Of a stretch of 64,000 bases of DNA, positions 10,029 through 54,609 are shown in pieces. The notes below the pieces were generated by a model. That model ran no database searches, was not told the DNA's origin, and saw only the letters and a list, made by a program, of their open reading frames with translations. The first letter of the stretch is position 1. The number at the start of each line of letters is the position of its first letter. The DNA is from Candidatus Omnitrophota bacterium (GTDB lineage: Bacteria; Omnitrophota; Gorgyraeia; Gorgyraeales; Gorgyraeaceae): assembly GCA_042572045.1 (NCBI GenBank), contig JBHPFI010000001.1:112015-176014 (forward strand). The letters are read 5' to 3'. A program made the position numbers and the translations under genes.

Positions 10029-10057
10029 ATGATACTGCTAAGGGGTCATTGAGTCAA
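10029..10057 (-). promoter_or_regulatory. Sigma70-type promoter module copy: TTGACT-17 nt-TATCAT
   Basis: Minus-sense -35 at 10057-10052, -10 at 10034-10029, exact 17-nt spacer. It is embedded in the last codons of the upstream gene. Confidence 0.6.
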
Positions 10058-11147
10058 GGTGAGGCGTCTTAACAAAAATTTGTTTTTGAATTTCCCACTT
10101 TTTTCTATCTTCAAGCGTAGCTTCTGCCGTAAGTGTCATAACCCCTGTAGAACCTCCAGCAAGGCCAGCTTTTAAAGCTTTTTCATATTCCTCTACGCTC
10201 ATCTTTTTAGGTTCATCTGTTGCCTGAACGATAGGCCAGACCTGTTTGTCTGTCTTGAGTTTTATCCATTGGGTTAATGAAATTATCCAGTCCGTATCTC
10301 TATAACATAATAAGTGGTAACTCATGGGCGAAAATACATCTATTACCTTAGAAAGCTTTTCTATATCCTGTCCAATGGCTTTATATATTGCATTATCAAA
10401 GTCTTCCTCTCTCCACGGAACTAAAAATATTCCTATAATCGCGTCTTTTCTGTATTTTGTTACTGCGTTTCTAATCTTTTTTGCTGTATCAACGATAACG
10501 TCACTCCTCCATTCATACCAATTTTCAGAATGATTTTTATATATCCATTGGGAAATCTCTTTTGTCGATTTCAGTTCTTCAGGGATCCTTACGCCTGTTT
10601 CATTTTGGAATCTCTTAAGACAACTTTTGCAAAAACATGTAAGTTGTATCTTAGGAACTTTTACTTCCCACCTTGTAGGCCATCTCATGAAATCAAGCCA
10701 TAATCCGTCGATTGGATATTCTCTTGCTATATCTTCCGCTTCCTCTATCTTTTGGTTAATTAGCCATTGCTGAGACGGGCAGATACCTGCATACCACCCA
10801 TCCATTTCCGCCAGACTCCCGTCTGATAATACCGGACGGGATTCAGGATGTTCGTCCCAGTAATGGTTGCCAGAGAACATCGACAATTCAGCATACGCCT
10901 TTACCCCATTTTTACGAAGCTGATTAATTATTGAATTATTAAGCGGGACATGCACGACAGCATTTATCCCACATCCCTTAAGATATTTTGATATTTGTTC
11001 GGGACTTTTATTTTTAAATACTGGTGATTTTAAAGGAAGAGTATAAATTGCCTTTGTTATTTGCTGTTCTCCAAACGATTTGGTCGCAAATAAAAATGAG
11101 AGGAGTATATAAAAAATAATATGCCCAAATTTTATTTGAGTCCCCAT
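10038..11147 (-). CDS. Secreted TIM-barrel glycoside-hydrolase-like protein (GHL10/DUF4015-type)
   Basis: Signal peptide. Motifs GINAVVHVP, AYAELSMF and PIDGLWLDFMRWP. The last ~10 codons (KTPHLDSMTP*) are encoded by the promoter repeat. Confidence 0.5.
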   Translation of the reverse strand: MGTQIKFGHIIFYILLSFLFATKSFGEQQITKAIYTLPLKSPVFKNKSPEQISKYLKGCGINAVVHVPLNNSIINQLRKNGVKAYAELSMFSGNHYWDEHPESRPVLSDGSLAEMDGWYAGICPSQQWLINQKIEEAEDIAREYPIDGLWLDFMRWPTRWEVKVPKIQLTCFCKSCLKRFQNETGVRIPEELKSTKEISQWIYKNHSENWYEWRSDVIVDTAKKIRNAVTKYRKDAIIGIFLVPWREEDFDNAIYKAIGQDIEKLSKVIDVFSPMSYHLLCYRDTDWIISLTQWIKLKTDKQVWPIVQATDEPKKMSVEEYEKALKAGLAGGSTGVMTLTAEATLEDRKKWEIQKQIFVKTPHLDSMTP

Positions 11148-11162
11148 CTTATCTTCCCCCTG

Positions 11163-12293
11163 CTACCCCCATATCCCCGGAATCTTGTGATTACAGGATG
11201 GACAGCGCCCGTTATGTATATTGTTTTTCAATACCTTGAAATGTATGCGGTGAATTAGGGTTGTATTACATTTTGGGCAAAAGGTGGAGTTATGTAGATG
11301 GCCCGGGACATTGCCTATAGTGACATAATCCAGGCCTGTCTCTTTTGCAATCTTATAGGCCTTTTCAAGGGTTTCTATTGGTGTGGGCGGGAGATTGATG
11401 AGGCGGTAGGATGGTGAAAACCTTGAAAAATGAAGCGGCACCTCATGACCTAGATTGTGTTTTATCCATTTGCACATATCCTGTATCTCGTCTGGATACT
11501 CGTTTATTGTGGGGATGACGAGATTTACAATCTCAAGCCATTTCCCTTCTCTTTTTATTATTTTTAATGCTTCCAGGACCGGCTCGAGCTCTGCAGAAGA
11601 ATTGTCATACGCTCTCTTGGAGAAGCCTTTCAGGTCAATGGTGGCTGCGTCTGTGTATTTTAAAAGCTCTCTTAGGGGCTTGGGGTTTAGCGAGCCATTG
11701 GAGTGCCAGAGGATACGCAAACCTTTTGTCTTGGCAATTTTTGCTATATCGTATACGTATTCGTAAAAAGATATAGGATCATTGTAGGTAAAAGAAAGGG
11801 TCGGGATTTTTCTTTTGAGAGCCTCGTCTACTGCCTCCTGCGGTGAAAGGTCATGGTAGGTCATCTGTTCTATGGAGCGCTGCGAGAGTTGCCAATTTTG
11901 GCAGTGTTGGCAGCGATAGTTGCAGCCAGCTGTACCAAAGCAAAGTATCTGGGTGCCTGGCAGCATATGGAGCTGCGGCTCTTTTTCAATAGGGTCGACC
12001 TGGATGGATGAAGGCCGGGAATGGACAATATTGTAAAGGGTGCCATTTGAGTTTTCTTTGTTGCGGCAAAAGCCTCTTTGCCCCTCTTTTATGATGCAGC
12101 GGCGGAAGCAGATTTCGCACTGGAGGGTACTGTCTTCGAGGCACTTATAAAACATTGCCTCTCGCTTCATCACGTTAGAGATCTTTGCCCACACTCTTTT
12201 TGCGAATATATTGGATGTGAAAACAAGAAATAGACATAGGGTGATTCTTTTTAAAAATGCCTTGCGGGAGATTTTTTGGTTAAGAAAAGTCAT
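11163..12293 (-). CDS. AmmeMemoRadiSam-type radical SAM enzyme (PFL-activase-like) with an N-terminal hydrophobic, Tat-like extension
   Basis: CEICFRRCIIKEGQRGFCRNKEN...GTAGCNYRCQHCQNW (CX3CX2C). C-terminal CPKC..CPSC. N-terminus contains ISRKAFLKRITLCLFLVF. Confidence 0.7.
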   Translation of the reverse strand: MTFLNQKISRKAFLKRITLCLFLVFTSNIFAKRVWAKISNVMKREAMFYKCLEDSTLQCEICFRRCIIKEGQRGFCRNKENSNGTLYNIVHSRPSSIQVDPIEKEPQLHMLPGTQILCFGTAGCNYRCQHCQNWQLSQRSIEQMTYHDLSPQEAVDEALKRKIPTLSFTYNDPISFYEYVYDIAKIAKTKGLRILWHSNGSLNPKPLRELLKYTDAATIDLKGFSKRAYDNSSAELEPVLEALKIIKREGKWLEIVNLVIPTINEYPDEIQDMCKWIKHNLGHEVPLHFSRFSPSYRLINLPPTPIETLEKAYKIAKETGLDYVTIGNVPGHLHNSTFCPKCNTTLIHRIHFKVLKNNIHNGRCPSCNHKIPGIWG

Positions 12294-12356
12294 TTCGACT
12301 CGTTCGAAGAGTATGACAAAAAGGCCTTAATTGCATATCTTTATTGTGCATCTTTT

Positions 12357-12385
12357 ATAATACTACTTTGGGCTCATTGCGTCAA
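12357..12385 (-). promoter_or_regulatory. Promoter module copy: TTGACG-17 nt-TATTAT
   Basis: Shares the spacer CAATGAGCCCAAAGTAG with the other copies. Lies ~65 nt upstream of the radical SAM gene ATG (12293). Confidence 0.55.
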
Positions 12386-12523
12386 GGTAAGGTGTTTTTG
12401 TGTTAAATGTGTGTAAGTAAAGGGGGAAATAATAGGTAAGCTATTCGTATCTTAATGCTGTCAATGCTATATTGACTTTTTACCAGGATTTACGTTATAA
12501 TAGTTCTTAAATAAAGGGGATGC

Positions 12524-12865: not shown

Positions 12866-12970
12866 AACCAAAACCCCCTAAAACCTACACAAATCCCAAC
12901 CTCTCCCTGCGGCGAATGTATATATATTATCTCTTAAATGTGTGTAAGTAGAGAGGAAATCAAAGGTAAG

Positions 12971-13050
12971 CTATTCGTATCTTAACGCCTCTATCGGATT
13001 AAGCTCGGACGCCTTTTTGGCAGGCCACAGGCCAAAAAACATACCTATCT
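12971..13050 (-). pseudogene. Orphan 3' fragment of a MacB/FtsX-type permease gene
   Basis: Encodes GMFFGLWPAKKASELNPIEALRYE* with an in-frame TAG two codons upstream. 40 nt (13008-13047) are identical to macB 24918-24957. Confidence 0.8.
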
Positions 13051-13084: not shown

Positions 13085-15007
13085 TTATAACTGCAGATAG
13101 TCTTCAAGCGGCACGGTCTTCTGCGTTGGAGCATTCTTTTCTTTGTCCGTGTCAATAAACTGCATGCACCATATTTCAAAAGTCAACAGACAAAAGATAC
13201 GATACCCATGATGCTTCAGCTCGATTATTTCACGGGGTTTGATTTTCTGGCGAGGGAATTCATTGAAAATATGCTCAAGTGATCTATTATTGAAAAGACC
13301 TCGTCTCTTTAGACGACTAAGAAGTCTCTCCAGCACAATCGGCCGTTTTGTCAGGAATAAATGAAAAGGCACATCACAGCTTTGTTGGGCTGAATATACG
13401 TATTGTTCCGGCAGATAACGGAGCATCGCCATTTTATGGAACCTGCGTCTATGTCCGGTATTGGAAAGTTTCTGAAAGGTAGTCCCGTCATTAAGCCACT
13501 CCTTGGGCAGTGAGTTTATAAAGGTGATCAGCTTATTATTCAAATACGGCGAGTAATAGTTCATCCCGAATCCCTCTATCGGTTTTTGCGTCGGAGGAAG
13601 CATATACTGATACACTCCGTACAGCATTTTCGTTTCAATAAGGGCATCGAAAAAATTATCCTTGGTAAATGGCAAGTCTATCATACATTTGTGAAGCGAG
13701 ATCTCTTTAAAAGTCTCGGCATCAAGGATCTTTCTCACGGTCTCTATATTATAATGGCGGTACGAGCAAAGCCTGCCAAAAAAATCATCGTATATATTTT
13801 TTTCAGCAAAAAGAGAAAACACATGGTCACTTTCCCAGAAACGCTCCCAGTCATTTACCGAAAGTATTATTTTGTTCAATAGCCTGGCACCCTTACGTAA
13901 TATATACGGAAGACGCCTGAAATACCTGTGCCACTCGGCCACAGGATAATATTCTCCCCATAATGTATCTCCTGCGTCACCGGAGATCATGCTATCCACG
14001 TGTTTACGTGCCTCGAGGATGCACATAAATATAGGAAGCGCTCCCCCAGAAACAGGCTCCTCGACTATATTTATAAAATAAGGCACACAGTCTATAGCAT
14101 CCGGACCTATGACCACAGGATGATGGACCCCTCCGAACTTTTCGGTAATATAGCGTGCCTTCGGCGTCTCGTCAAAAGCGAAGTTCTCATAGGAAGCTGT
14201 AAAGGCATGAACAGGCTTACCAAAAAGCTTTGACGTCTGGATAAATGTAAAGCTAGTGTCGTGGCCGCCGCTTAGAAAACAACCAAGTTCTCCAGGCTTT
14301 ACACAGTTAAGAAAACTTCCGATACTTTTGCTGTAAACACTCTCGTATTCGTCAAGTTTAGCGTTAAGATCCGTGAACGGCCGCCTGTCAAAGATATATT
14401 CAGTTTTCCAGTGATCTGAAACAGTGTATGTTTTATCGTGAACATGGATAAATTGAGTAGGCAGAAGTTTTTTAACCCCCTCTAATTGCGTTTTTTCAGT
14501 ATATGAGAACCCCGTTCGCAAGAATGAAGGAAGCGCCTGTTTATCAAAAGGGGGTGTGTAAGGCAGCAGGTCGAGCAGCAGCTTAAGTGAGCTTGCGAAA
14601 AATAAAGCATTATCATTAGCACAATAATACAGTTGAGTGGCCTGGTGACGGCTGTTAAAAATGAACACTTCGCCTGATGTCCTGTCGTGTATCACGATTA
14701 TAAAAAAACCGTCGAGAAGGGAACAGAACCCCTTCCCTTCTTTAACAAATAGCTGTGCAACTAATTCTTCGAGATTATTTCGACTTGACTCAAAATAGGC
14801 ACCATCTGCCTTTATATCTAATATATCGCCTAATATTATCACTGAATGATTATCGGTAATTCTTGCAGGTCGCGACGAACGAACGGCAACACAAGATTGG
14901 CAATATTCGGCAGTAAAAGGAATCTGCTGGATCGGCTTAGATTCTTTGCCGTCAAGTAAGACCCGTCCAGCGATCGTATATTTATTTTTTAATTCCGGAA
15001 GATTCAC
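13085..15007 (-). CDS. Asparagine synthetase-family adenylating enzyme lacking the N-terminal catalytic Cys
   Basis: GTG start. N-terminus MNLPELKNKY has no Cys2. PP-loop variant CFLSGGHDTSFTF. 640 aa. Confidence 0.7.
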   Translation of the reverse strand: MNLPELKNKYTIAGRVLLDGKESKPIQQIPFTAEYCQSCVAVRSSRPARITDNHSVIILGDILDIKADGAYFESSRNNLEELVAQLFVKEGKGFCSLLDGFFIIVIHDRTSGEVFIFNSRHQATQLYYCANDNALFFASSLKLLLDLLPYTPPFDKQALPSFLRTGFSYTEKTQLEGVKKLLPTQFIHVHDKTYTVSDHWKTEYIFDRRPFTDLNAKLDEYESVYSKSIGSFLNCVKPGELGCFLSGGHDTSFTFIQTSKLFGKPVHAFTASYENFAFDETPKARYITEKFGGVHHPVVIGPDAIDCVPYFINIVEEPVSGGALPIFMCILEARKHVDSMISGDAGDTLWGEYYPVAEWHRYFRRLPYILRKGARLLNKIILSVNDWERFWESDHVFSLFAEKNIYDDFFGRLCSYRHYNIETVRKILDAETFKEISLHKCMIDLPFTKDNFFDALIETKMLYGVYQYMLPPTQKPIEGFGMNYYSPYLNNKLITFINSLPKEWLNDGTTFQKLSNTGHRRRFHKMAMLRYLPEQYVYSAQQSCDVPFHLFLTKRPIVLERLLSRLKRRGLFNNRSLEHIFNEFPRQKIKPREIIELKHHGYRIFCLLTFEIWCMQFIDTDKEKNAPTQKTVPLEDYLQL

Positions 15008-15980
15008 GTGTATGGCTTTTTTCTATATCGAATCTCTGTAATATATCTCTGTCGAGCTCTAAGCTTCTAACGCGACTTCTTATCTCGATCAGCAATATAT
15101 GCAGACTAGCTAGTATGGAACCAATTAGTCCACAGAACAGGGAGACTGCTGCCATAAAAAGACCGATATAAAATATTTTATCCAGCAAAACACTATGAAC
15201 GCTGTTCGCTAAAAGGAGCGATTTGCTTGCCACTGCCAAGACAGATACGCTGAATAACGCTATAGCCAGCCATATAAAAAAAGCTAACGGGTAATACTCG
15301 AGGAAGACCGCTGCTAAAATTTTAACCTGTTCAAGCACATACTCAAAATATGATGTAAAAAGGTGGGATTCCCTGGTCTTGGCGTTTACGCCGATAGGTT
15401 CCCATGCAACCTTTAATCCTATCCGTCTTGACTGGCATAACATCTCAAGGGTATAACTAAAATCACATCTGACAACGATCCTTCTCGCAGCATGACGGCT
15501 AATGGCACGGAATCCGGTCGTCGCATCTGGGATATTTAAGTCAGAGAAACGAGAAGCGATCCTGCTGCCCACTTTATGCAGCATTTTTTTAAGAAGGCTG
15601 TTTTCCTTATTAGCGTCGTTATCGCGGCACCCCAGCACTATATCAGCACGCTTATTACAGATCGGCCTTATGAGTTTTGGTATATCGCTTCCTTTATACT
15701 GGTTATCTCCATCAAGGTTGACAATGATATCCGCTCCTAACGCGAGGGCTACCTCTAATCCATTACAAAACGTCTTTGATAGCCCCTGTTTAACGTTATT
15801 CTTAACGATATAATCGACACCCATGGACTTTGCGACTTCAACTGTCCTGTCAGTGCTACCGTCATCTATGACCAGGGTATATATTTCATCTATTCCCTCT
15901 ATAGGTCTCGGGATTCCGGTAATAACGGAAGGCAATGTCGCCTCTTCGTTCAAACAAGGGATCTGAATAAAAAGCTTCAT
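14982..15980 (-). CDS. Family 2 glycosyltransferase with C-terminal TM helices (polyprenyl-phosphate sugar synthase type, ArnC/DPM1/GtrB-like)
   Basis: MKLFIQIPCLNEE..VIDDGSTDRT..NLDGDNQY, followed by two or three C-terminal TM helices. An alternative TTG start at 16016 would overlap the asnB stop. Confidence 0.75.
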   Translation of the reverse strand: MKLFIQIPCLNEEATLPSVITGIPRPIEGIDEIYTLVIDDGSTDRTVEVAKSMGVDYIVKNNVKQGLSKTFCNGLEVALALGADIIVNLDGDNQYKGSDIPKLIRPICNKRADIVLGCRDNDANKENSLLKKMLHKVGSRIASRFSDLNIPDATTGFRAISRHAARRIVVRCDFSYTLEMLCQSRRIGLKVAWEPIGVNAKTRESHLFTSYFEYVLEQVKILAAVFLEYYPLAFFIWLAIALFSVSVLAVASKSLLLANSVHSVLLDKIFYIGLFMAAVSLFCGLIGSILASLHILLIEIRSRVRSLELDRDILQRFDIEKSHTRESSGIKK

Positions 15981-16012
15981 ACCTGATATTTTAAAACTTT
16001 TCTCTTTTAAGT

Positions 16013-17887
16013 TCAAGGGCTAATATGTTTTAATAATACCAACAACCCCCATATTTTAAAGGAATTGTTCTCTTTGCGCTGTCTGTGCCTGAGCAATAAA
16101 TTTATACACTCATCTCTATTAATAAAGTTGTCAAAAAGCCTGTGATGCGCATTGAATATATCATGGCAATAATCAAACAGATCCGACTTTAACCATGCAG
16201 CTATAGGCATATGCCATCCCTGCTTCTTTTGCCGTAGTATCCTTTGGTCCAGTTTGTCTGTCATTATCTTTTTCAACAGATACTTGGATTCTGTTATTTT
16301 AAAACGCGCACTAAAAGGTAGCTTTATCAAATATTCAGCCAGAGGAAGGTAGAGAAACGGCACCCGCACTTCGAGGGAATTTTTCATACTGTAAACGTCC
16401 GTCCTTAATAAATTATTGAAAGTGAGCCATGAGGTCAGGTCGGAGTTGGCTAGATATTCGAGAGAGGCATCCTTTTTATCTGGACCTCCGTAATATGTGT
16501 CACTGAATGAGTTTAAATCTATTTTATCCAGCAGATCACTCTTTAGTATTGCCTTTTTATCCTCGAACGGAAAGATAACACGCCAGTATGAATGCGCCAT
16601 TTTACTATCTCTGAATTTCGCCCCCTGTATAAAACGCAGGAACTTATAATCGAAGTTAAGCTTTTTATCGGATGAGGGGAAAAAGGAAATCATTTTTTCA
16701 AGAGAACCGAGACCGGCTATTGGGAGGTGCTTGAAGAAACGATAAAGAAAATCCGCTCTGTAAGTAGGGTATCCTAAAAACAGCTCATCCCCCCCTTCTC
16801 CGGAAAGACAGACCTTAACATATTTACTGGCTAACCGACTTACTAAATAGGTTGAGACACACGCCTGATCCGCGATAACAGAATCGCAAATTTCAGGAAG
16901 ATCTTCCAGGAACCGGATCACATCACCTTCGCGGCATACGATCTCAGCATGATCTGTTTTATACTTTTCAGCAACAAGTCTCGCATATGGCCTCTCATCG
17001 TAGGATTTATTATCATATCCTACCGAAAACGTCTTAAGACGACGATGGTTATTCTGGCATAAAAAATGTACTATCGAACTGGAATCAATACCTCCGCTTA
17101 AAAAACATCCGACCTCGACATCGGACTGGATATGTCTTTTTATCGAATCCTTCATGAGCTCTTCTACATCATGGATTATCTCTCTGGCAGAAAACTTTTC
17201 TTTACCTGTATATATATTCGGCCTCCAAAAAGACCTGACAACGGGCCTCAAATGGTTATTGACCTGCAAAAAATGCCCCGGCAAAAGTTCAAACAGATCC
17301 TTGTAGATCGTTCTTTTACCTGGGATATAATTGTAGTGAAAATACAGATTCAACCCTTCAGGATCGATATCTTCTGTTACCGCACCGCTCTTGATCAGGG
17401 ATCTGGTTTCAGAAGAAAACATAAACCTACAGCTGTTTCGGTAAAAATAAAGTGGTTTTATTCCAAAGTGGTCCCTAGCTAGAGTAAGGACATTCCTTTT
17501 TACATCAAATATACACATGGCGAACATTCCATGAAGAAGATTAAAACACTCAACACCTTTCTCTTCATACAAATGGACGATAACTTCCCCGTCCCCTTTT
17601 GTTCGAAATAAGTGGCCCTTACTTTCTAATTCAGAGCGTAACTCTTTGAAATTATAAATCATCCCGTTATAGACAAGGACCAGGCTTTTATCCTCATTGA
17701 ACAACGGTTGGTCGCTGTTAATAATGTCGACAATGCTCAAACGACTGGCAGCTAGACCGACATGATCGCTCTCATAAATACCCTGGCTGTCCGGCCCCCG
17801 ATGCAATAACAATGAGTGCATACGTGAGAGGTATCCGGCCTCTTCTTTATATCTTTCGGGGGAATAAATTCCGCAAATACCACACAT
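16013..17887 (-). CDS. asnB: Asparagine synthase (glutamine-hydrolysing), canonical
   Basis: MCGICGIY Ntn-Cys start. PP-loop CFLSGGIDSSSIV. 624 aa. Confidence 0.85.
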   Translation of the reverse strand: MCGICGIYSPERYKEEAGYLSRMHSLLLHRGPDSQGIYESDHVGLAASRLSIVDIINSDQPLFNEDKSLVLVYNGMIYNFKELRSELESKGHLFRTKGDGEVIVHLYEEKGVECFNLLHGMFAMCIFDVKRNVLTLARDHFGIKPLYFYRNSCRFMFSSETRSLIKSGAVTEDIDPEGLNLYFHYNYIPGKRTIYKDLFELLPGHFLQVNNHLRPVVRSFWRPNIYTGKEKFSAREIIHDVEELMKDSIKRHIQSDVEVGCFLSGGIDSSSIVHFLCQNNHRRLKTFSVGYDNKSYDERPYARLVAEKYKTDHAEIVCREGDVIRFLEDLPEICDSVIADQACVSTYLVSRLASKYVKVCLSGEGGDELFLGYPTYRADFLYRFFKHLPIAGLGSLEKMISFFPSSDKKLNFDYKFLRFIQGAKFRDSKMAHSYWRVIFPFEDKKAILKSDLLDKIDLNSFSDTYYGGPDKKDASLEYLANSDLTSWLTFNNLLRTDVYSMKNSLEVRVPFLYLPLAEYLIKLPFSARFKITESKYLLKKIMTDKLDQRILRQKKQGWHMPIAAWLKSDLFDYCHDIFNAHHRLFDNFINRDECINLLLRHRQRKENNSFKIWGLLVLLKHISP

Positions 17888-17892
17888 GTTCT

Positions 17893-19314
17893 TTATCCTA
17901 TGATCTTACTCAGAGAAGATATCCCATATCTTAAAATACACATCCGCTCTCTAAAACTTCCCGCCAGCTTGAGTCTTTCCAGAACATATCCCGGGCGCAC
18001 ATAAAAACCTCTTAATGCCTTTTTTCTTAATTCGATAAGCCTTTCTCTGGTCAGAGATAATGTAGGGCACTGAGACCCGGTATAGGAGTCTCTTGAAACC
18101 CCAGAAGCAGAGTAGTTATCGATCAACCCATTCTCTTTTATTATTTGAAAAAGCTCGGTCCCCTCAAACGCTGACGGTAAAAAGAAATCGAGATAATCAG
18201 GCGCTATCTTTCTTGAAAAAGAGATGGTTTCTCCTATAGTATCCTCTGTATCCCACGGGAAACCTATTATGAAATAGGCATACGTCTGTATACCATTCTT
18301 CCTGCAGAGACTAAAGGCTTCTTCGATATCACTTACCGTGATATCCTTTTTTATTTTATCCAGAATATACTGAGAACTGCTTTCAACCCCCAGAGAAAGA
18401 GCAAAACACCCGCTTTCTTTCATCATATTAAGCATATGATCGTCCAGCGTATCAACCCTGCTGTTAGCGAACCATCTGATCTTTAAATTCTTATCAATAA
18501 TGCCTCTACATAGATCGATGACCCATTTCCTGTCAAGTGAGAACAAATCAGACTTAAAATGGAAGTCAAAGATATTATGCTCATGATTGCAAAGTTCTAT
18601 CTCTTCAATAATCTTTTCAACTGAGCGCCTTCTATGGTCCTTACCGTAAGCAAAAGAAGTAAGGCAAAAAATACACTGATACGGGCACCCCCTGCTTACC
18701 TCTATCAGTCCAAGTGGCCGTCCATTATCGGGCCTTTTATATAATTCATTCTTTATTAAGCCTCTGTTGACTATTGGGATAGCGTCTAAATCCTTGAGAA
18801 ACGGTCTTTTATCGGTCTTGGAGATCGACCCCTTATAGCGATAAAAGACCCCCCTGACCCTGTTTTTATCCTCATATTCCAGAAATTCATATAATGTAAA
18901 ATCCGTCTCTCCGTAAAATACAGCATCTATGGAACTTTCATTTTCCATAACTTTTCCGGCTATATTCTCGATCATGCCGCAGCGTAATATAACGATCAGG
19001 TCCTTTTTTATTTTTTTCGCTATCTGAGCGCACGCGATATCATCCTTTAATGTGGGGATCGTCCCGTTTATTACCAGGATATCCGGCAATATCTCTTTCA
19101 GATCGAGCTCATAATCCCAGACTGACTTTTTTTCGATCGGATAATCTCTGATAATAACTTCGTACCCATGACCTTCCAACACCGCCGCCATAGTCAATAA
19201 TTCGTGCGGAGGGCGGGTTACTGAGATCAAAAAATTTCCAACGTCACTTTGACAGCGATCATCACGAATGAAAAGGCCTGTAGGAGGATTTACCATTAAA
19301 ACTTTTTTTTCCAT
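17893..19314 (-). CDS. B12-binding domain radical SAM enzyme (paralogue C)
   Basis: NPPTGLFIRDDRCQ N-terminus. SRGCPYQCIFC (CX3CX2C). GVESSSQ. Confidence 0.8.
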   Translation of the reverse strand: MEKKVLMVNPPTGLFIRDDRCQSDVGNFLISVTRPPHELLTMAAVLEGHGYEVIIRDYPIEKKSVWDYELDLKEILPDILVINGTIPTLKDDIACAQIAKKIKKDLIVILRCGMIENIAGKVMENESSIDAVFYGETDFTLYEFLEYEDKNRVRGVFYRYKGSISKTDKRPFLKDLDAIPIVNRGLIKNELYKRPDNGRPLGLIEVSRGCPYQCIFCLTSFAYGKDHRRRSVEKIIEEIELCNHEHNIFDFHFKSDLFSLDRKWVIDLCRGIIDKNLKIRWFANSRVDTLDDHMLNMMKESGCFALSLGVESSSQYILDKIKKDITVSDIEEAFSLCRKNGIQTYAYFIIGFPWDTEDTIGETISFSRKIAPDYLDFFLPSAFEGTELFQIIKENGLIDNYSASGVSRDSYTGSQCPTLSLTRERLIELRKKALRGFYVRPGYVLERLKLAGSFRERMCILRYGISSLSKIIG

Positions 19315-19317
19315 AAC

Positions 19318-20745
19318 TTAGACTACCCTCTTTACCAATCTACATCCCCATTTTATGTAGTTAAAAAGGACCCTGGGGTTTTTAGCGCCCATCATTTTTT
19401 TAACTATATATTTAGGCCGAAAATAAAAAGAGGCCAACATATCCTTACGCAGGTCTGTGATTTCATCAGGGGACAGCGAAAAAGTACGCAGTATCGGATT
19501 AATATGGGAAAACCTTTCATAATCCCTTGATATGAAAAGATCCTCTTTACCAGCCATTTCATATAACTCGCTGCCTATTAAGGGATAAGGCACATTCACT
19601 TCCATAAAGTCAGGGTCTAACTTAAGAAGAAGTTCTTTAGTCTCATTGATAGTTGTATGGTCATCCCATGGAAAACCAATGATACAGTGAAAAAATGTCC
19701 GTAAACCGCTTTCTTTTGCCAGCCTGTGCGCATCTTCAATGTCTTTAACGCATATGTTCTTTTTGATCTTTTTCAAGATAGTATCGCTGCCGCTCTCTAC
19801 GCCGAAACCTACTATATCACAACCTGCCTTCTTCATCGCTTTAAACATCTCCATGTCGGTCCTATCTACTCTGCTATTAGCGCCCCAGGAGATACTGATC
19901 TTCTCCTCACCTACTCTCTTACAAAAAGCCATCACCCATTTTTTATCAAGGGTAAAGTTGTCGGATCGAAAAAAGAAGCTGCTCACATCATATCTTACAA
20001 GGCACTCCTTGATCTCTCCGATAACATTATCGACACTTCTGGTCTGCACTTTCTTCCCTAAATATACCGGTGCTGAACAAAAGATACATTCACCAGGGCA
20101 ACCTCTTGAAAGGTAGATATAAGCTATCGGCTCCCCTGAGTCGGGCCGGACATAATCCTTTCTGTTTAAAAAATATCTCGGTGGAGAAGGATATCCGTCT
20201 ATATGAAAAGTACTTCCGACATCCAGACTCACAGGCTCGTGAATTGTCCGACCGGACAGCACATAGGCATTTTTTAGCCTGTCGACCCTGCCGAGATCCA
20301 TTAAAATATCCTGGATAATCTGCTCAAAATTCCTGACAATAAAGTATATTTTATTACGGCTGTTTAATTCAACGACAGCAAGTTCGCCTCTAAGATATGG
20401 GAAATCCAGGAACGGCGCTTTAATGATAAAAAAGGGATCTTTTACCCTGTCGTTTAAAGACTTGATAAAATTCATATCGTTTTTAAAGGTCCCCTGGGTA
20501 GTCTCTATATAATAACAATCCGCGTTGAAACTGGCTGCGTCAGAAAGGACATCTTCCAGATCGAATCCCGGCACGCTATAATCCTTTAAAAAGACTTCAT
20601 GACCGTATTTTTGGAAGAGTCCGGCCAGATAAAGGATCTGGACAGGTTCTCGGATATTCTCTGCAACGCGGGAATTTACATCTATCTGGCACCGCTCATC
20701 GCGTATAAAAAGTCCTGTAGGAGGGTTGCAGAAAAATATTTTCAT
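19318..20745 (-). CDS. B12-binding domain radical SAM enzyme (paralogue B)
   Basis: NPPTGLFIRDERCQ and SRGCPGECIFC. I chose the ATG at 20745 because it forms an ATGA overlap with the upstream stop. The track start is 20763. Confidence 0.8.
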   Translation of the reverse strand: MKIFFCNPPTGLFIRDERCQIDVNSRVAENIREPVQILYLAGLFQKYGHEVFLKDYSVPGFDLEDVLSDAASFNADCYYIETTQGTFKNDMNFIKSLNDRVKDPFFIIKAPFLDFPYLRGELAVVELNSRNKIYFIVRNFEQIIQDILMDLGRVDRLKNAYVLSGRTIHEPVSLDVGSTFHIDGYPSPPRYFLNRKDYVRPDSGEPIAYIYLSRGCPGECIFCSAPVYLGKKVQTRSVDNVIGEIKECLVRYDVSSFFFRSDNFTLDKKWVMAFCKRVGEEKISISWGANSRVDRTDMEMFKAMKKAGCDIVGFGVESGSDTILKKIKKNICVKDIEDAHRLAKESGLRTFFHCIIGFPWDDHTTINETKELLLKLDPDFMEVNVPYPLIGSELYEMAGKEDLFISRDYERFSHINPILRTFSLSPDEITDLRKDMLASFYFRPKYIVKKMMGAKNPRVLFNYIKWGCRLVKRVV

Positions 20746-24826: not shown

Positions 24827-24880
24827 GGATCTCTCTTTTTAGCCGCAATTTCCTGCAGCTTCTAATAATGGAAATGTTAT

Positions 24881-29056: not shown

Positions 29057-29196
29057 TGTAAATCCTTATATTGTTATATATAATATACTACTTTAAATAG
29101 AAATGCAAAGATCTGTGAAAAAATTTATGGGGAATTTTGAAAGATTTTGAAATGCCTACCGCAAATCTTTTCCACGCCTTTATGGTTAGTGTATAT

Positions 29197-29225
29197 ATGA
29201 TACTACTAAGGGGCTATGCAGGCAA
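29197..29225 (-). promoter_or_regulatory. Promoter module copy: TTGCCT-17 nt-TATCAT
   Basis: Same -10 and downstream ATATACACTAACCATAAAGGCGTGG as the other copies. Lies ~140 nt upstream of the tolC-like ATG. Confidence 0.5.
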
Positions 29226-29246
29226 TGGGATTATTGATCTAATGCC

Positions 29247-35755: not shown

Positions 35756-35826
35756 TCTCATTTCTTTTTCCGCTGCGCCCTCTTTAACAAAAAAGCAATC
35801 CCCTGTATTCTAATACCCTAACTCCC

Positions 35827-35895: not shown

Positions 35896-36029
35896 TTATC
35901 CCTTTCTCAGCGTTTTTTATTTTACCTCTAAGTACCCTATCCTTAACGCCAGCTCCAATAAACATATATTAATAATAACAATAAATAATGCTCAAATTAA
36001 CTTCTTTTTTTAAGGTTAAGTGTTTGGTT

Positions 36030-37325: not shown

Positions 37326-37328
37326 AAT

Positions 37329-37967: not shown

Positions 37968-38160
37968 AACTTTAACCCCCCCTCCTAAAAGAAAAGGCAA
38001 CCTTGGCTTTATGTCAGAATTGCCTTATGCCTTACAAATATAATAATTTCCTAATCATCTCTTGCTCTATTGTGGAGATTCTAATAAATCCTGCCACCCC
38101 ATTGTGGCCTGAAAACACACAAAAAGGCCTTAATACATACTGTATCTTTGTATGCAATAT

Positions 38161-38189
38161 ATGGTACTACTTTGGGCTCATTGAGTCAA
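38161..38189 (-). promoter_or_regulatory. Promoter module copy: TTGACT-17 nt-TACCAT
   Basis: Exact 17-nt spacer CAATGAGCCCAAAGTAG. Begins 10 nt after the rlmD-like stop. Confidence 0.55.
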
Positions 38190-38220
38190 GGTAAGGTGTC
38201 TTTGTGTTTATTATCGATCA

Positions 38221-39857: not shown

Positions 39858-39968
39858 CTACTGGTGTGTTCTTTCTTGTCTTTTCCTGTTTGCTTCGTTT
39901 TGTGCGTTTTTTGCTTTGGTTACTTGTTTGTTGTGTTTATTTTTATCTTTCTTGCCTTTATCACCCAT
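39858..39968 (-). CDS. 36-aa highly basic peptide (MGDKGKKDKNKHNKQVTKAKNAQNEANRKRQERTHQ)
   Basis: AGGAGG lies 7 nt upstream of the ATG. No homology recognised. Confidence 0.4.
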   Translation of the reverse strand: MGDKGKKDKNKHNKQVTKAKNAQNEANRKRQERTHQ

Positions 39969-41896: not shown

Positions 41897-42262
41897 CTAC
41901 CCCACACTCCACCCAACCACCACCCCTAAGAGTATTACAAAAACCCCATACAATCGGCAACATCCTTCAGAGCAGCCCAAGAAGTAGCTGATTGTGGATT
42001 CAAGCATATTGACAGGGGAAATCAGTATGAATAGACCTTTAATCAAGGATATAATACCCAGGACCTTTATAAAGAGTGCAAGGCGAGATACTGGGTGAGC
42101 CCATAGAAATAACACCCCAAACAATAAGGGTAAGATAAATGCGGTTTTTACAACAGGATTCATTAGATCAGTATAGAGTGTCTTGGATTTTTTGGGGAAG
42201 AGAATAAATGCTGTTCCTATAGATATCCAGAATATAGATATGAATGATAGAAAGATCTTCAT
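41897..42262 (-). CDS. 120-aa-family 4-TM membrane protein, paralogue 3
   Basis: Homologous to 8867-9238 and 9638-10000. Lies 24 nt downstream of the Cys-rich gene. Confidence 0.7.
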   Translation of the reverse strand: MKIFLSFISIFWISIGTAFILFPKKSKTLYTDLMNPVVKTAFILPLLFGVLFLWAHPVSRLALFIKVLGIISLIKGLFILISPVNMLESTISYFLGCSEGCCRLYGVFVILLGVVVGWSVG

Positions 42263-42286: not shown

Positions 42287-42499
42287 TTAAGGTTTATTTA
42301 ATATCTCAAACCAGGGACATTCGTTCATGCAATACTTTAGGCCCTTACCTTTTGCCTTAGGGCAGCCTTTCTCGCCAGTACTGGATGCAACAATCCAGCA
42401 TCTTGCACCCATATTTTCTATATAGGCAGGGCATTCTTCTCTTGCTATTAGTTTGCAATTCCAAAAATCCCAACAGTTTTCAGACCTTTTTTCCGCCAC
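42287..42499 (-). CDS. 70-aa Cys-rich protein with two C-W motifs (resembles the two-CW domain)
   Basis: GTG start. NCWDFWNC..ECPAY..ARCWIV..KGCP..YCMNECPWF (7 Cys). Confidence 0.55.
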   Translation of the reverse strand: MAEKRSENCWDFWNCKLIAREECPAYIENMGARCWIVASSTGEKGCPKAKGKGLKYCMNECPWFEILNKP

Positions 42500-42633
42500 A
42501 GCTACCTATCAAAGCTTTATACCAGAATTGCCTTATCTCTTACAAATATAATAATCTCCTCATCATCTGCCACCCCGTTGTGGCCTAAAAACACACAAAA
42601 AGGCCTTAATGCATGTATCTCTATATGTAACAT

Positions 42634-42662
42634 ATGATACTACTTTGAGCTCATTGAGTCAA
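42634..42662 (-). promoter_or_regulatory. Promoter module copy: TTGACT-17 nt-TATCAT
   Basis: Exact 17-nt spacer CAATGAGCTCAAAGTAG. Lies ~135 nt upstream of the Cys-rich gene. Confidence 0.6.
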
Positions 42663-42779
42663 GGTAAGGTGTCTTTGTGTTAAATGGGGATAAGTAAATG
42701 GGAAATGGTGGAATTTTAGTGACACTTTGAAACGTGCTTCTGGGGTAGGTGGTGTGAGGTTTTGAGAGTAACAGGGGGG

Positions 42780-45946: not shown

Positions 45947-46040
45947 TTTTATCCTCTCCACCTAAGTTTAGTCACTATTCCATCGAATCCCTATCTTTAC
46001 CAGCCTTGGCCTCTGCCACGCCATTGTGGCTAGTGTATAT

Positions 46041-46069
46041 ATGATACTACTTTGAGCTCATTGAGTCAG
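46041..46069 (-). promoter_or_regulatory. Promoter module copy: CTGACT-17 nt-TATCAT
   Basis: Same spacer CAATGAGCTCAAAGTAG. Lies ~95 nt upstream of the tpx ATG. Confidence 0.5.
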
Positions 46070-46138
46070 TTGGAGAAAGCTTATTTACAGTTCAAGCTTC
46101 CCTGTTTCTTATCGATCATCAGATGCCTTTATTTGTTC

Positions 46139-47290: not shown

Positions 47291-47376
47291 GATACAATTA
47301 TACCTATCAAAAAGGTGGGCGTCTTATGTGTTAGCTGACCCCAAATTTTTACCACCAATACTTGGAGAAAGCTTAT

Positions 47377-47604
47377 TTACAGCTCAAACTTCCCTGTTTC
47401 TTCTTTTATGGATTTAGAGAATTTGCTTTTGGTGCTATCCAGAATTTGCTGAAGAGCGGCAAATATCTTATCCACTTCTTCCGTGGTATATTCATAACCC
47501 GGAGAGGATAGATTCCCTATCAGCTCTATCTTCTTTAACGCGTTCGTCACTCTCTGCGCCGCCAATCTCTTAAACTTATCGTGTTTGCTTTCAGCTTCTG
47601 ACAT
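47377..47604 (-). CDS. Hypothetical 75-aa protein
   Basis: Clean ORF with AAAGGAGG Shine-Dalgarno sequence. A copy of its 3' end occurs at 46069-46110. Confidence 0.5.
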   Translation of the reverse strand: MSEAESKHDKFKRLAAQRVTNALKKIELIGNLSSPGYEYTTEEVDKIFAALQQILDSTKSKFSKSIKEETGKFEL

Positions 47605-48924: not shown

Positions 48925-50541
48925 TTAAGAATATAATAGAAGAAGTTGCTTTTTAATATTTTCATCGGACAAATATTCGTCAAATGTTATGTTGGGGCGA
49001 TCTATAAAACCCCTGGGCGTAATCTCAATAATGCGGTTAGCCACAGTTTGAATCAGCTGATGGTCATGCGAAGTAAATAAAATAGTTCCGCCAAACTTCC
49101 CCAAGCCCTTATTTAAGGACTCGATTGATTCTAAGTCTAAATGATTGGTCGGATGATCCAGGATTAGCGTATTGGGCTGGGCCAGCATCATGCGAGATAG
49201 CATGCATCTGACCCGCTCGCCACCGGATAAAACTCTGACCTGTTTAAAAGATTCATCGCCGGAAAAAAGCATACGTCCTAAATATCCGCGTACAAAAACC
49301 TCGTAAGTATTATCCGAATACTGGCGAAGCCAATCGATAAGATTGCAGTCTACATCAAAATATTTAGAGTTATCCTTAGGATAATAAGCCTGGCTAGTTG
49401 AGGCGCCCCATTTAAAATTACCGCCATCAGGCCGTATCTCTCCAACCAACACCTGAAATAGAGTCGTCTTAGCAATATTATTGGGCCCGACAAAAGCTAT
49501 TTTATCGCCTTTCTCAACAGTAATGGTAAAATTCTTAAACAAAACCTGTCCATTAAGCGACTTAGATAAATGATCGATATTCAAGATATTGTTTCCGGCC
49601 TCGCGCTCTTGTTCAAAGCTTATATACGGACTCTTCCTCGAAGAAGGCTTAATATCCTCAAGGGTAAGTTTTTCCAAAGTCTTCTTACGGCTGGTTGCCT
49701 GCCTGGCCTTAGAGGCATTAGCGCTAAAACGGGCTATAAAATTTTTCAACTCTTCTCTTTTTTTCTCTACCTTTTTATTAGTTTCAATACGCTGTCTTAA
49801 AATCAACTGGCTGGATTCTAACCAGAAACTGAAATTACCCGGGTACAGCTGAATATTGCCATAATCAATATCCGCGATATGCGTACAAACCTTGTCCAGG
49901 AAATGGCGGTCATGAGAAACCACAATAGCTATATTTTCAAAGTTACATAAAAATTCTTCAAGCCATTTACAATTTTCAATATCCAGATGGTTGGTAGGCT
50001 CATCGAGCAATAAGATGTCAGGGTTACCGAACAATGCCTGGGCCAAGAGGATGCGCACCTTCTGCCCTTCTTCTAGCTGCTTCATCTCGAGGCCATGGAA
50101 TTCTCCTGGAATGCCCAATTCACTTAACAATTTAGCTGCATCAGATTCAGCGTTCCACCCATCCATCTTAGCAAACTCTACCTCAAGCTCAGAGAGATGC
50201 ATTCCATCTTTATTAGAAAAGTTCTTTTTAGCATAGAGTATGTCTTTTTCCATCGTGACATCATAGAGTCTTTTATGCCCCATGATAACAGTGGTCAAAG
50301 CCGTGTACTCGTCAAAAGCAAACTGATCCTGTTTTAAGACTGCGATACGTTTGTCGGGAGATACTGCAACCTCTCCTGCAGTAGAGTCAACTTCACCGGA
50401 AAGAATTTTTAAAAACGTAGATTTTCCTGAACCGTTAGCTCCTATCAGCCCGTAACAATTCCCAGGAGAAAAGACTATATTGACATTAGAGAAAAGCTTA
50501 CGCGAGCCATAGTGCAATGATATTCCGTTAGATGAAATCAT
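48925..50541 (-). CDS. ABC-F family ATPase (two ABC domains, no TM)
   Basis: GANGSGKST and GPNNIAKTT Walker A motifs. Two LSGGE-type signatures. Charged linker. Confidence 0.85.
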   Translation of the reverse strand: MISSNGISLHYGSRKLFSNVNIVFSPGNCYGLIGANGSGKSTFLKILSGEVDSTAGEVAVSPDKRIAVLKQDQFAFDEYTALTTVIMGHKRLYDVTMEKDILYAKKNFSNKDGMHLSELEVEFAKMDGWNAESDAAKLLSELGIPGEFHGLEMKQLEEGQKVRILLAQALFGNPDILLLDEPTNHLDIENCKWLEEFLCNFENIAIVVSHDRHFLDKVCTHIADIDYGNIQLYPGNFSFWLESSQLILRQRIETNKKVEKKREELKNFIARFSANASKARQATSRKKTLEKLTLEDIKPSSRKSPYISFEQEREAGNNILNIDHLSKSLNGQVLFKNFTITVEKGDKIAFVGPNNIAKTTLFQVLVGEIRPDGGNFKWGASTSQAYYPKDNSKYFDVDCNLIDWLRQYSDNTYEVFVRGYLGRMLFSGDESFKQVRVLSGGERVRCMLSRMMLAQPNTLILDHPTNHLDLESIESLNKGLGKFGGTILFTSHDHQLIQTVANRIIEITPRGFIDRPNITFDEYLSDENIKKQLLLLYS

Positions 50542-50569
50542 GTTTTAAAATCCTTTAATATTGGTAGAT

Positions 50570-50599
50570 AAAAAAGGGCCCTGTTTTTAAGCAGGGCCC
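50570..50599 (-). terminator. Intrinsic terminator
   Basis: GGGCCCTG / CAGGGCCC stem followed by TTTTTT on the minus strand. Confidence 0.7.
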
Positions 50600-50790
50600 G
50601 CATATCACCCATTTCCTATTAAACTTAGCTTATTTTATCAAACACTGTTCGAATTTGCAAGAAAAAAGCCTCTCCCTTGGCCAATCCCTCACCAATCCAT
50701 CTAGTCCCTATATTATACCTTAGCCAATCCTGCCTTCGCCAACCCCTCTCCAAATCACTTTTTTGACTCCCTCAGCCCTAGCCTACTAGC

Positions 50791-52526: not shown

Positions 52527-52650
52527 AATAACCCTCCTTTTATCTAAAAACGGTTTTTATTTACCAAAACCTCCGAACACTTTCTTGACTTTTTCCACGC
52601 CTGCCTTTGCTGTATCAGCCAGGGCGTTCTTTAATGCTAGCCTCCTTTCC

Positions 52651-53727
52651 TTATTTTTCAAACAATTTTTTATACTCAGGGTATCCTTCTTTTTCCAGGT
52701 CTTCTTTTGGTATAAACCTTAAAGAAGCAGAGTTTATGCAATAGCGCAGGCCTGTAGGATTAGGGCCATCTGTAAACACGTGGCCAAGATGAGAATCAGA
52801 GAACTTAGTTTTTACCTCAGTTCTTATCATAGAAAGGCTTTTGTCCTCTTTTTCAATGATACTTCCTTTCTCGAGAGGTTTAGTAAAGCATGGCCAGCCA
52901 GTGCCTGAATCAAACTTGTCTAAAGAGCTAAAAAGAGGCTCGCCTGATATCACATCCACATATATCCCCTCTTTTTTATTGTCCCAGTACTTATTTTTAA
53001 AAGAAGGCTCAGTGCCGCGCTCTTGTGTAACCTTGTACTGTAAAGGCGTGAGTTTGGCTTTAAGTTCTTCTTTAGATAGTTTAGATACTTTGGATACTTT
53101 TTTATAAGCCTTGGGTTTTTTCTGTAAAGTTTGTTTCCATTTTTCCTTTATATATAGATCGCGGCCTGAACCAGATTTATAACGATTGTACTTTAAGGGG
53201 CATGTCTTGTAATAATCCTGGTGATAATCTTCTGCCTTGTAAAACGTAGAGGCCTGGATGATTTCTGTAACAATAGGTTTTATAAATTTTCCGGATTTCT
53301 CTAATTTTACCTTTGATTCTTCTGCCTCTAGCTTTTGCTCCCGGGTATGATAGAAAATAGCTGTTTTATACTGTGTGCCCCTATCAGCAAACTGCCCTCC
53401 TTCATCAGTCGGGTCTATCTGCCTCCAGAATACCTCGAGAAGTTCTTTATATGTTATTTTGGAGCTGTCATATGTGACTTCGACTGTCTCTAGATGACCT
53501 GTCGTTCCTGATGATACCTCTTTGTAAGTCGGATTCTTTCTGCCTCCACCTGTATATCCAGATACAACATCCCTGACCCCTTCTAGTTCTTCAAAAGGCG
53601 CCTCCATGCACCAGAAACAGCCACCAGCGAATGTGGCTTTTTCAAACCTTGTACCTGCTTGAGCGTTAGACTGAACTATAAAAAACATAAAAAATGCAGT
53701 TGAATATTTTAAAACTTTACTTGTCAT
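52651..53727 (-). CDS. msrAB: Periplasmic bifunctional methionine sulfoxide reductase MsrA-MsrB
   Basis: Signal peptide. GGCFWCME (MsrA). [11 protein letters not shown] (MsrB). Confidence 0.85.
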
Positions 53728-53738
53728 ACCTATTACTT

Positions 53739-54482
53739 TTATTTTACTTCAATCTCTATATCTGGATTAAAAGGATTTGTCCTTACTGCCAAAGAGAATA
53801 AGTAAGGATAGTTATCTTTCAAATGCTTCATATAATCCAGCCATTCTGATATTAAATAGCCATAGGCTCTTTTTAAATCTCCTGACAGGTGTTCATAATC
53901 ACTTTTTGGTAAATTAGAAAGACTCTTTCTGTGGATCAGCTCTTCGGTTAAATGAAACGTTGCCCATAAAAGATTGGTAAATGATTCGTGTTCTAATAAG
54001 TTCTGATTTTCTAAAAGCCCAAGAAGAAACTGCCTTCTGTTGCTTAAAAATGCTTTCAGGTCTTGTAAATCCACTTTTTTTATATCAATATTAAAAGATT
54101 GCTTATTAAAATCTTTGCGCTTCTTTAAGAATTCCTTGCTTGGCCATTCGTTTATATTAGTGAGTTTTTTATTTATGCTATTTATATCTAAATTAGAAAC
54201 TGAAAGAATCTTCAATAACTCCGTACCTACATCGCTAAAGAACGCGCCTATTACCATATAAAGTTTATTCAACAGCACTTTTTTCTCCCGGTAATCAAGT
54301 AATTGGTGTAGTATCAGGGTAACTAATAAAACTTCAAAAAACACAAAGGCGATATCGCCTATCATATAAATGAATATATGATGAGCATCTCTAAATATAG
54401 CAAAATGTATAAGATAAACAATAGCAGATAAAGCTATAAGCGTTGTTCCAAAAAATAACTGCCAGTTTAAAAATTTCTTCAT
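53739..54482 (-). CDS. Membrane protein (2 TM plus a cytoplasmic domain), function unknown
   Basis: 247-aa ORF behind GGTGGAGAGGG. It shares its 5' leader with tpx. Confidence 0.55.
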
Positions 54483-54580
54483 AACGTTTTACCCTCTCCA
54501 CCTAATCTTAGTCACTACTCCATCGAAGCCCTATCTTTACCAGCCTTGCCATCTACTACATCATTGTGGCTAGTGGGAAT

Positions 54581-54609
54581 ATTATATCAACTTAGTCTTA
54601 TTTGGACAA
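54581..54609 (-). promoter_or_regulatory. Promoter: TTGTCC-17 nt-TATAAT (diverged module copy)
   Basis: 17-nt spacer. Followed 11 nt later by the palindrome-derived CCACAATGATGTAG, as in the other copies. Confidence 0.45.

Follow-up and report, generated by a model that had tools for sequence, protein, structure and literature searches.

The closest described counterparts of the element treated here are the putative mobile promoters (PMPs), documented as a case of "promoter propagation in prokaryotes". PMPs are upstream regions of at least 50 nt sharing at least 80% identity (BLAST E<1e-4) in front of non-homologous coding sequences (CDSs), and their families range from 2 to 93 members (Matus-Garcia, Nijveen & van Passel 2012; PMC3488235). 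The DNA analysed here ("the window") is a 64-kb stretch of a contig from a Candidatus Omnitrophota bacterium (JBHPFI010000001.1). It harbors a dispersed sequence of about 60-65 nt, hereafter the "module", in which a predicted sigma70-type promoter is followed by a short leader. This sequence probably belongs to a promoter-plus-leader family that has spread by propagation within one Omnitrophota clade.

Correia repeat enclosed elements (CREE) of Neisseria and miniature inverted-repeat transposable elements (MITEs) possess defined terminal inverted repeats (TIRs), are flanked by target duplications, and insert in either orientation. The operators of known regulons span ~14-25 bp, are symmetric, and have flanks that diverge freely. 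Omnitrophota are an uncultivated phylum that occurs widely, its members being very small and possibly dependent on a host. We know of no experimental work on their transcription signals, and a literature search for Omnitrophota promoters returned nothing relevant. The 120-aa protein encoded at 9638-10000 of the window is identical to ACFL0P_00565, from the 176-kb contig of a Candidatus Omnitrophota metagenome-assembled genome (MAG). Locus tags ACFL0P_00565 to ACFL0P_00785 fall within the window.

A dispersed repeat with promoter-like anatomy

The repeat stands out clearly from shuffled sequences. The 31-mer TATCATATATACACTAACCACAAAGGCGTGG, covering the -10 and the leader, has four matches when as many as 3 mismatches are allowed, the number expected by shuffling being 0.00; the 32-mer ACACAAAGACACCTTACCTTGACTCAATGAGC (upstream arm and -35) has three against 0.00, and the 18-mer AAGTAGTATCATATATAC seven against 0.05. 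An nhmmer profile built from the copies retrieves exactly the eight sites that a sequence-only reading of this DNA had listed, with scores from 48 down to 14.8 bits, the next best match in the 64 kb reaching 5.7 bits. The sequences and coordinates quoted in that reading are all present on the minus strand; a ninth, partial copy is listed with them in Table 1. About 10% of the window is non-coding (~90% coding), and every copy is intergenic, with copy B overlapping the last 20 nt of the upstream open reading frame (ORF).

The copies had been described as pointing at the next minus-strand gene, and all nine are indeed co-directional with the next ORF, as are 12 copies from related loci (31 to 50 bits). 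No antisense copy is found among these 21. The distance from the -10 to the start codon is 28-193 nt. Pfam agrees with the earlier gene assignments (TolC/HlyD/MacB, radical SAM, PhoU domain, Redoxin for tpx) and places a rubrerythrin after tpx and MsrA/B after the MJ1433-like membrane protein. These genes had been called unrelated; when the initial 150 nt of the eight CDSs are compared, only those behind copies A and B, which encode paralogous membrane proteins, align with each other, and the others have differing Pfam assignments.

The clade consensus reads cacc-TTGACT-CAATAAGCCCAAAGTAG-TATCAT-ATATACACTAACCACAAAGG. In an alignment on the hexamers of 17 copies from eight loci (eight copies from the window and nine from related loci), conservation takes the form of a single continuous block from about -44 to +19, and the spacer is as informative as the -35 and the -10. 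This continuous block, with a spacer conserved like the hexamers, upholds the view that the copies derive from one ancestral sequence and are not convergent. The spacer is 17 nt long in every full window copy and in 12 copies from related loci. Its alleged invariance thus holds for length and fails for sequence, since mismatches to the clade consensus vary between copies, being few in most of them and ~6 to 8 in A, D, and H.

The hexamers TTGACT/TATCAT at 42634-42662 match the sigma70 consensus (TTGACA/TATAAT) at 10 of 12 positions. A promoter scanner attributes 9 to 10 of 12 to E, F, and G, and inspection by eye gives 10 for B and H and 9 for C and D. The critical A2 and T6 of the -10 are kept. 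Other promoter-like sites of the window (near 47650, 55600, 56250, and 50650) display the pattern TTGxxx-17-TAxxAT with unrelated spacers, as exemplified by TTGGCA-17-TATAAT near 47650 and TTGAAA-17-TATCAT near 55600. Because their spacers are unrelated, RNA polymerase would not need the spacer found in the module. The host appears to use the canonical sigma70 geometry, the identity of the spacer being specific to the module family.

The copies fall into two classes. Class 1, which comprises A, B, D, and G together with a weak member, H, continues without interruption into ACACTAACCACAAAGGCGTGG. Class 2 (C, E, and F) is supplemented by an upstream arm, ACACAAAGACACCTTA, and by a ~50-nt insert ending with TAAGGCCTTTTTGTGT, located between the -10 and the CCACAAYGGGGTGG motif. 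The similarity that had been reported on both flanks of the hexamers is found in part of the copies on each side: upstream, ACACAAAGACACCTTACC is present only in C, E, and F, and downstream, A, B, D, and G have ATATACACTAACCACAAAGGCGTGG, to which H shows a weak resemblance. In A and B, as well as in the related copies L012a, L012b, L015, and L018, AAAGG(A/C)G is followed 6-8 nt further by ATG or GTG; owing to this distance, the conserved leader can be considered to end in a Shine-Dalgarno sequence.

A variant of the leader, CCACAATGG, has also been observed in the window at 46016-46029 (G), 38094-38107 (E), and ~54562-54575 (H). It harbors an ATG positioned to start translation ~10 nt from the predicted transcript start. 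In the related locus L001 (~9235-9245), the PEGA gene is annotated as starting at this ATG, whereas at G, E, and H it begins short upstream ORFs, which are 18, 11, and 2 codons long, respectively.

The favoured explanation is that of a homologous promoter-plus-leader module of ~60-65 nt (~-44 to +19). Its predicted sigma70-type promoter, TTGACT-17 nt-TATCAT, would start transcription ~7 nt downstream, in ATATACA, and its short leader, ACACTAACCACAAAGG, would offer AAAGG(A/C)G as a Shine-Dalgarno sequence when an ATG comes 6-8 nt later. Both the transcriptional activity and the start position are predictions from the sequence. The module would have propagated within one Omnitrophota clade, in front of unrelated genes, apparently by ordinary duplication, recombination, and deletion, and sometimes together with the 5' end of a small DUF2065-like gene. 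Purifying selection, gene conversion between copies, or the two together would keep its sequence, including the spacer, alike.

Table 1. Copies of the module in the window and the second 5'-untranslated-region (5'-UTR) module. Coordinates are those of the whole 64-kb window and sequences are read on the minus strand; the -35 and -10 hexamers are predictions.
Feature	Coordinates (strand)	Sequence elements	Score or search	Genes behind and context
Copy A, partial	9242..9288 (-)	-10 TATCAT 9267-9272, leader ATATACACTAACCACAAAGGCGTGG; 3' half of spacer kept, -35 lost	profile, 14.8 bits	DUF2065-like paralog A, ATG at 9238
Copy B, full	10004..10072 (-)	TTGACT-CAATGACCCCTTAGCAG-TATCAT 10029-10057, then leader	45.4 bits	Paralog B, ATG 28 nt past the -10; last 8 codons of the upstream DUF4015-like ORF overlapped
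Copy C, class 2	12316..12403 (-)	TTGACG-17-TATTAT 12357-12385; upstream arm ACACAAAAACACCTTA 12388-12403; insert end TAAGGCCTTTTTGT 12316-12329	40.6 bits	Predicted promoter of radical SAM gene 11163-12293 and DUF4015-like gene
Copy D	29172..29238 (-)	TTGCCT-17-TATCAT 29197-29225, then leader ...CCATAAAGGCGTGG	33.2 bits	Predicted distal promoter of the tolC-macA-macB operon
Copy D', ninth, partial	29080..29108 (-)	TTGCAT-TTCTATTTAAAGTAGTA-TATTAT, then ATATAAC; AAAGTAGTAT..ATATA	18-mer search	tolC-proximal promoter-like site, 23 nt before the tolC ATG (29056)
Copy E, class 2	38094..38207 (-)	TTGACT-17-TACCAT 38161-38189; arm ACACAAAGACACCTTA 38192-38207; ~50-nt insert with TAAGGCCTTTTTGT 38119-38132, then CCACAATGGGGTGG 38094-38107	47.9 bits	PhoU-domain gene
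Copy F, class 2	42570..42680 (-)	Core 42634-42662, architecture as in E	47.3 bits	Small Cys-rich gene, then DUF2065-like paralog 41897-42262
Copy G	46016..46084 (-)	CTGACT-CAATGAGCTCAAAGTAG-TATCAT 46041-46069, leader CCACAATGGCGTGG	40.5 bits	tpx and rubrerythrin
Copy H, most diverged full copy	54571..54624 (-)	TTGTCC-AAATAAGACTAAGTTGA-TATAAT 54581-54609	22.8 bits, E=5.6e-6	MJ1433-like membrane protein and MsrA/B fusion
Second 5'-UTR module common to G and H	45947..46015 (-) and 54487..54570 (-)	~75 nt to Shine-Dalgarno sequence GGTGGAGAGG	repeat family D7	

Distribution, spread, and rate of change among relatives

Four metagenome contigs and three GTDB genomes contain the module when a relaxed pattern is used. 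Relatives of the host include GCA_964415355.1 and the assemblies to which CAYULJ010000033.1 and JABMRA010000091.1 belong. The related loci that bear it are L001/L016, L012-L015, L017, and L018, with two occurrences in L001/L002. More distant Omnitrophota (~70 kb, from L011 and L019-L022) and viral contigs yield no copy, and the family appears for this reason to be restricted to one clade. The strict, window-specific pattern CAATGASCYCWWAGYAGTAYYATA has no match in the genome and metagenome contig collections, which do not include the source genome. Behind the related copies are found genes for a PEGA-domain protein, for a TPR protein, and for secreted and membrane proteins, a 41-aa ORF accompanied by a transglutaminase gene, and the orthologue of the PhoU-like gene of the window. 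In L015, the ORF behind the module is small, Cys-rich, and Zn-ribbon-like (it was not searched against Pfam). A weak match at position 6286 of L017 scores 13.5 bits and is devoid of a recognisable -35. The gene behind a second L017 copy encodes, according to its translation, an unrelated membrane protein and is not a tpx orthologue.

A second conserved promoter type, TTGACTTAYYYCCATTTAAGAGCTACYAT, occurs in L018 and L011, and its spacer is also conserved across lineages. In L018 it stands in tandem with the module, 46 nt upstream of it. The upstream arm of copies C and F, as well as those of the L017 and L001 copies, resembles this second promoter deprived of its -10, which argues that composite pieces of at least 100 nt have been copied.

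Comparison between close relatives reveals how the module may have moved. At L012 4140-5369, directly behind the module, the first 47 codons of a DUF2065-like paralog are fused in frame to a DUF4015 body. This fusion is, judging from its sequence, a capture of the promoter together with a 5' CDS. In this relative, which is 94% identical, the DUF4015-like putative glycoside hydrolase (window 10038-11147) has thus exchanged its N-terminus for 47 residues of the small membrane-protein paralog. In L017, a degraded paralog 5' CDS, still in register with the ATG, lies behind the copy that precedes the PhoU-like gene (P=0.0015). L012 and L013 are 98.8% identical up to leader position ACTAACCA; past the leader, L012 possesses 1,558 nt (5398-6955) with three ORFs, whereas L013 has only 21 nt before homology resumes. 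The Lys-rich gene at 39858-39968 has no module in the window, and its L013 homologue lies directly behind one. As read from these sequences, relatives with 94-99% identity do not always have the same gene behind the module. The spread looks like the outcome of ordinary duplication, deletion, recombination, and gene fusion, and not like the footprint of a transposable element.

The DUF2065-like proteins, for which the DUF2065 match is weak, form a family of ~120-aa membrane proteins with intact paralogs at 8867-9238, 9638-10000, and 41897-42262, and a fourth member reduced to a 3'-end remnant at 35813-35897. Outside the window, the family has been found only in Omnitrophota-like metagenome sequences (13 matches). 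The 5' ends of these genes travel with the module.

The rate of change of the module can be compared with that of neighboring genes. Divergence at four-fold sites amounts to 0.24 in the PhoU-like gene (window vs L017), 0.38 in an epimerase gene (window vs L001), and 0.12 in the DUF4015 gene (window vs L012). The core of copy E differs from the L017 copy preceding the orthologous PhoU-like gene at 2 of 29 nt, against 0.24 (P=0.019), and the L001 copy differs from B at 11 of 68 nt, against 0.38 (P=8e-5). Since both differences lie below the four-fold-site divergence, the module evolves more slowly than synonymous sites. The idea that copy B evolves faster than its flanking gene was discarded as not significant (4 of 29 nt vs 0.118, P=0.45). 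Five window copies have CAATGA in common, against CAATAA in all nine copies from other lineages, including the orthologous site in the 94%-identical relatives. This split may be read as a signature of concerted evolution among copies.

Alternative readings of the conserved block

A conserved spacer could also reflect recognition by a clade-specific DNA-binding factor (repressor or activator) or by a sigma70-family factor making extra contacts with the spacer, the factor reading the spacer and its flanks and thereby controlling one co-regulated set of genes, with envelope or oxidative-stress functions for instance. Such a reading is compatible with homology by descent. It agrees with the conservation of the spacer and of the -44 to -36 segment at the level of the hexamers, with the slow evolution of the module relative to synonymous sites, and with the retention of the module by the PhoU-like orthologue in two lineages. 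Several targets also belong to the envelope or to redox defence (tpx and rubrerythrin, MsrA/B, TolC-MacAB, membrane proteins), and the spacer substitution common to five window copies could result from co-evolution with a factor. However, the conserved stretch is continuous and, with ~60 nt, longer than a typical operator, and it displays no convincing dyad or direct-repeat symmetry, the sole symmetry (TTGA-C-TCAA) being broken in L001 and L014. The gene set is mixed, comprising radical SAM, PhoU-like, Cys-rich peptide, and PEGA genes as well as the small Cys-rich ORF of L015, and no regulator gene is consistently adjacent to the copies. The conserved spacer of the second promoter type TTGACTTAYYYCCATTTAAGAGCTACYAT fits copying by descent better than a special factor. 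A stable regulon is difficult to reconcile with a gene behind the module that changes between close relatives (94-99% identical). The regulon is not favoured over propagation and is considered doubtful. A more dynamic version, in which the module is the recognition unit of a clade-specific factor or sigma variant reading -44 to +19, in a "plug-in" regulon of fast turnover, is rated unlikely. If it were true, any gene landing immediately downstream of the leader, as seen in L012 compared with L013, would at once gain the same control. In a weaker variant, recombination would act preferentially on the modules and thereby shuffle genes among loci and among genomes.

The modules are found at rearrangement and indel junctions between close relatives, and in C, E, and F the promoter lies between the inverted repeats ACACAAAGACACCTTA and TAAGGCCTTTTTGTGT, with 56-59 nt between the arms. 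Both observations evoke a non-autonomous, MITE-like or Correia-like promoter element, or an inverton, especially for the class-2 form. The inverted repeat is not clearly beyond chance in shuffles (P = 0.067, 0.085, and 0.015), and it counts as one observation because the three copies are homologous; it was consequently rejected as MITE ends or as an inverton. Class-1 copies are devoid of it (P = 0.36-1.0). Besides, 56-59 bp between arms is very short for recombinase-mediated inversion. Target-site duplications are not visible at the copies, the 21 copies share one orientation relative to the gene, no flipped copy was found in nine related loci, and viral contigs carry no module. The edges of similarity are soft, fading gradually on both sides. 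No transposase or recombinase domain was detected in the ORFs scanned with Pfam, a set that covers most neighbors of the copies but neither the ORFs adjoining E, G, and H on the upstream side nor a number of ORFs in related loci. A mobile element of this kind is therefore very improbable. The portable promoter module proposed in the sequence-only reading holds as a propagated promoter and not as an autonomous element, given the lack of significant TIRs, of target duplications, and of opposite-orientation copies. Conservation for RNA structure, as in a riboswitch-like or attenuator leader or a small RNA, is likewise very improbable. Six window copies (A, B, D, E, F, and G) have a CCAC-N6-GTGG hairpin after the -10, the class-2 leader may form an 11-bp hairpin preceding a U-rich tract, and G and H share a further leader of ~75 nt. 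Nevertheless, Rfam yields no match at gathering scores or at E<=5, no tRNA was found, and fold z-scores range from -0.1 to -2.6. L012, L014, L015, and L018 do not keep the 3' half of the hairpin, and covariation is absent; the hairpin was rejected as a conserved functional core because of this loss in other lineages. Conservation is highest from -36 to -5, ahead of the predicted start, and this part matches promoter hexamers at the canonical 17-nt spacing.

The propagated promoter-plus-leader family has, for its part, several observations to its discredit. The promoter scanner reports 77 sites in 19.5 kb, and shuffles give 55, hence a hexamer match alone is weak evidence. The conserved, non-transcribed spacer would be superfluous for a plain promoter and could mean a bound factor or a recent horizontal spread. 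A strict pattern is found only twice in the one related GTDB representative genome, and the L018 copy is followed only by a degenerate 46-aa ORF. Finally, the comparison with synonymous divergence is not fully safe because MAG identity is mosaic, and horizontal exchange or gene conversion could contribute to the similarity of the modules. The mosaic is seen on L011, where nucleotide identity is 96% over the ABC-F ATPase gene (L011 14083-15311 vs window 49465-50695) and 69-70% over the ribosomal-protein cluster (L011 1278-5406 vs window 59698-63821). Either lineages of Omnitrophota have recently exchanged DNA horizontally, or the MAG contig is chimeric.

Neighboring repeats and comparison with known systems

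In addition to the module, several other dispersed sequences have been observed. The leader parts of G and H continue into a second shared 5'-UTR module (Table 1), with 85% identity over 100 nt when the promoter part is included. A partial copy at 35269-35312 precedes a PilZ gene, and this second module is also found in L015 (186-212). This second module could be a regulatory leader, both full copies being located before oxidative-stress genes; its fold z-scores are unremarkable (-0.9 and +0.9). A purine-rich intergenic module, GAGAGGCTGTTAAAAGAGTGRYTTGGAGAGGGATTGG, is present in the window at 34137-34173, 35224-35260, and 50739-50775 (-), and elsewhere at L011 11201-11237 and 14061-14097 and at L012 6900-6936. 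It lies in 5' UTRs, after stop codons, or before a terminator, in related and in more distant Omnitrophota contigs.

A repeat of 86 nt (84% identity), which harbors a GC-rich hairpin (GCCTTTTTGGCAGGCCACAGGCCAAAAAA), occurs at 12962-13047 and 24872-24957. The two genes concerned, an asparagine-synthase-like gene and macB, have it at their 3' ends or just beyond; in macB, the final codons and the stop codon (24881) are included. Terminator-like modules thus seem to be copied too, besides promoters. Immediately upstream of copies E and G, a 32-nt module, AAAGGCAYCTGATGATCGATAAKAAACA, is found at 38205-38236 and 46103-46134; in the first case the stop codon of the upstream gene (38221) lies within it, and in the second it comes just after that stop (46139). 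A related duplication of ACAGGGAAGYTTGARCTGTAAATAAGCTTTCTCCAA (~46070-46105 and ~47352-47395), marks the upstream edge of copy G.

Two groups of neighboring genes deserve mention. Downstream of tolC-macAB, a long co-directional cluster (13085-24826) includes a PMT_2-type glycosyltransferase (894 aa), three paralogous B12-binding/radical SAM enzymes, two asparagine-synthase-like enzymes, and a GT2 glycosyltransferase, and may be a surface-glycan or peptide-modification cluster. The small Cys-rich ORF behind copy F (42290-42499, minus strand) displays the pattern CWDFWNC...CW...C...C...C..CPW and has no Pfam match. Its start codon, GTG at 42499, is uncertain and is not preceded by a clear Shine-Dalgarno sequence.

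As a unit combining promoter, leader, and Shine-Dalgarno sequence, the module is a concrete candidate, open to testing, for a strong native expression signal. It might be of use for annotating transcription units and start codons in Omnitrophota MAGs, and for heterologous expression. It also offers an unusually transparent example of expression rewiring, the same module standing before different genes in near-identical genomes.

Among known systems, regulons of the LexA, PerR, or Fur type resemble this set in that unlinked operons, some of them devoted to oxidative stress, share a conserved sequence overlapping the core promoter. They differ from it by their short operators, whereas the module extends over ~60 nt without clear symmetry, and its membership shifts between near-identical genomes. 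Correia elements and MITEs are, like the module, short dispersed intergenic repeats able to supply promoter hexamers. In the module, however, the inverted repeat is confined to one sub-class and is not significant, duplications are lacking, and a single orientation prevails. Invertons of the fimS type recall copies C, E, and F by the promoter located between inverted repeats, from which these copies depart by the 56-59 bp between arms, by the lack of a linked recombinase in the scanned ORFs and of any flipped copy, and by a repeat that is statistically insecure.

The resemblance is closest with PMPs. In both cases, homologous upstream regions of 50-100 nt precede non-homologous genes within one genome and in related genomes, and Rfam yields no match; here, at least 8-9 copies are gathered in 64 kb. 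The pairs B-G (53 nt, 86.8%), C-F (115 nt, 82.6%), C-E (92 nt, 82.6%), and G-H (100 nt, 85%) reach the length and identity used to define PMPs, and all eight copies are linked when every match with E<1e-4 is used. The host belongs to the uncultivated phylum Omnitrophota, which is outside the survey in which PMPs were described (PMC3488235). Furthermore, the present module includes a leader and a predicted Shine-Dalgarno sequence, the route of its spread is visible (5'-CDS capture, in-frame fusion, and indel behind the leader), and its copies bear signs of concerted evolution. The case is a clear new example of known promoter propagation, and not a new kind or class of element.

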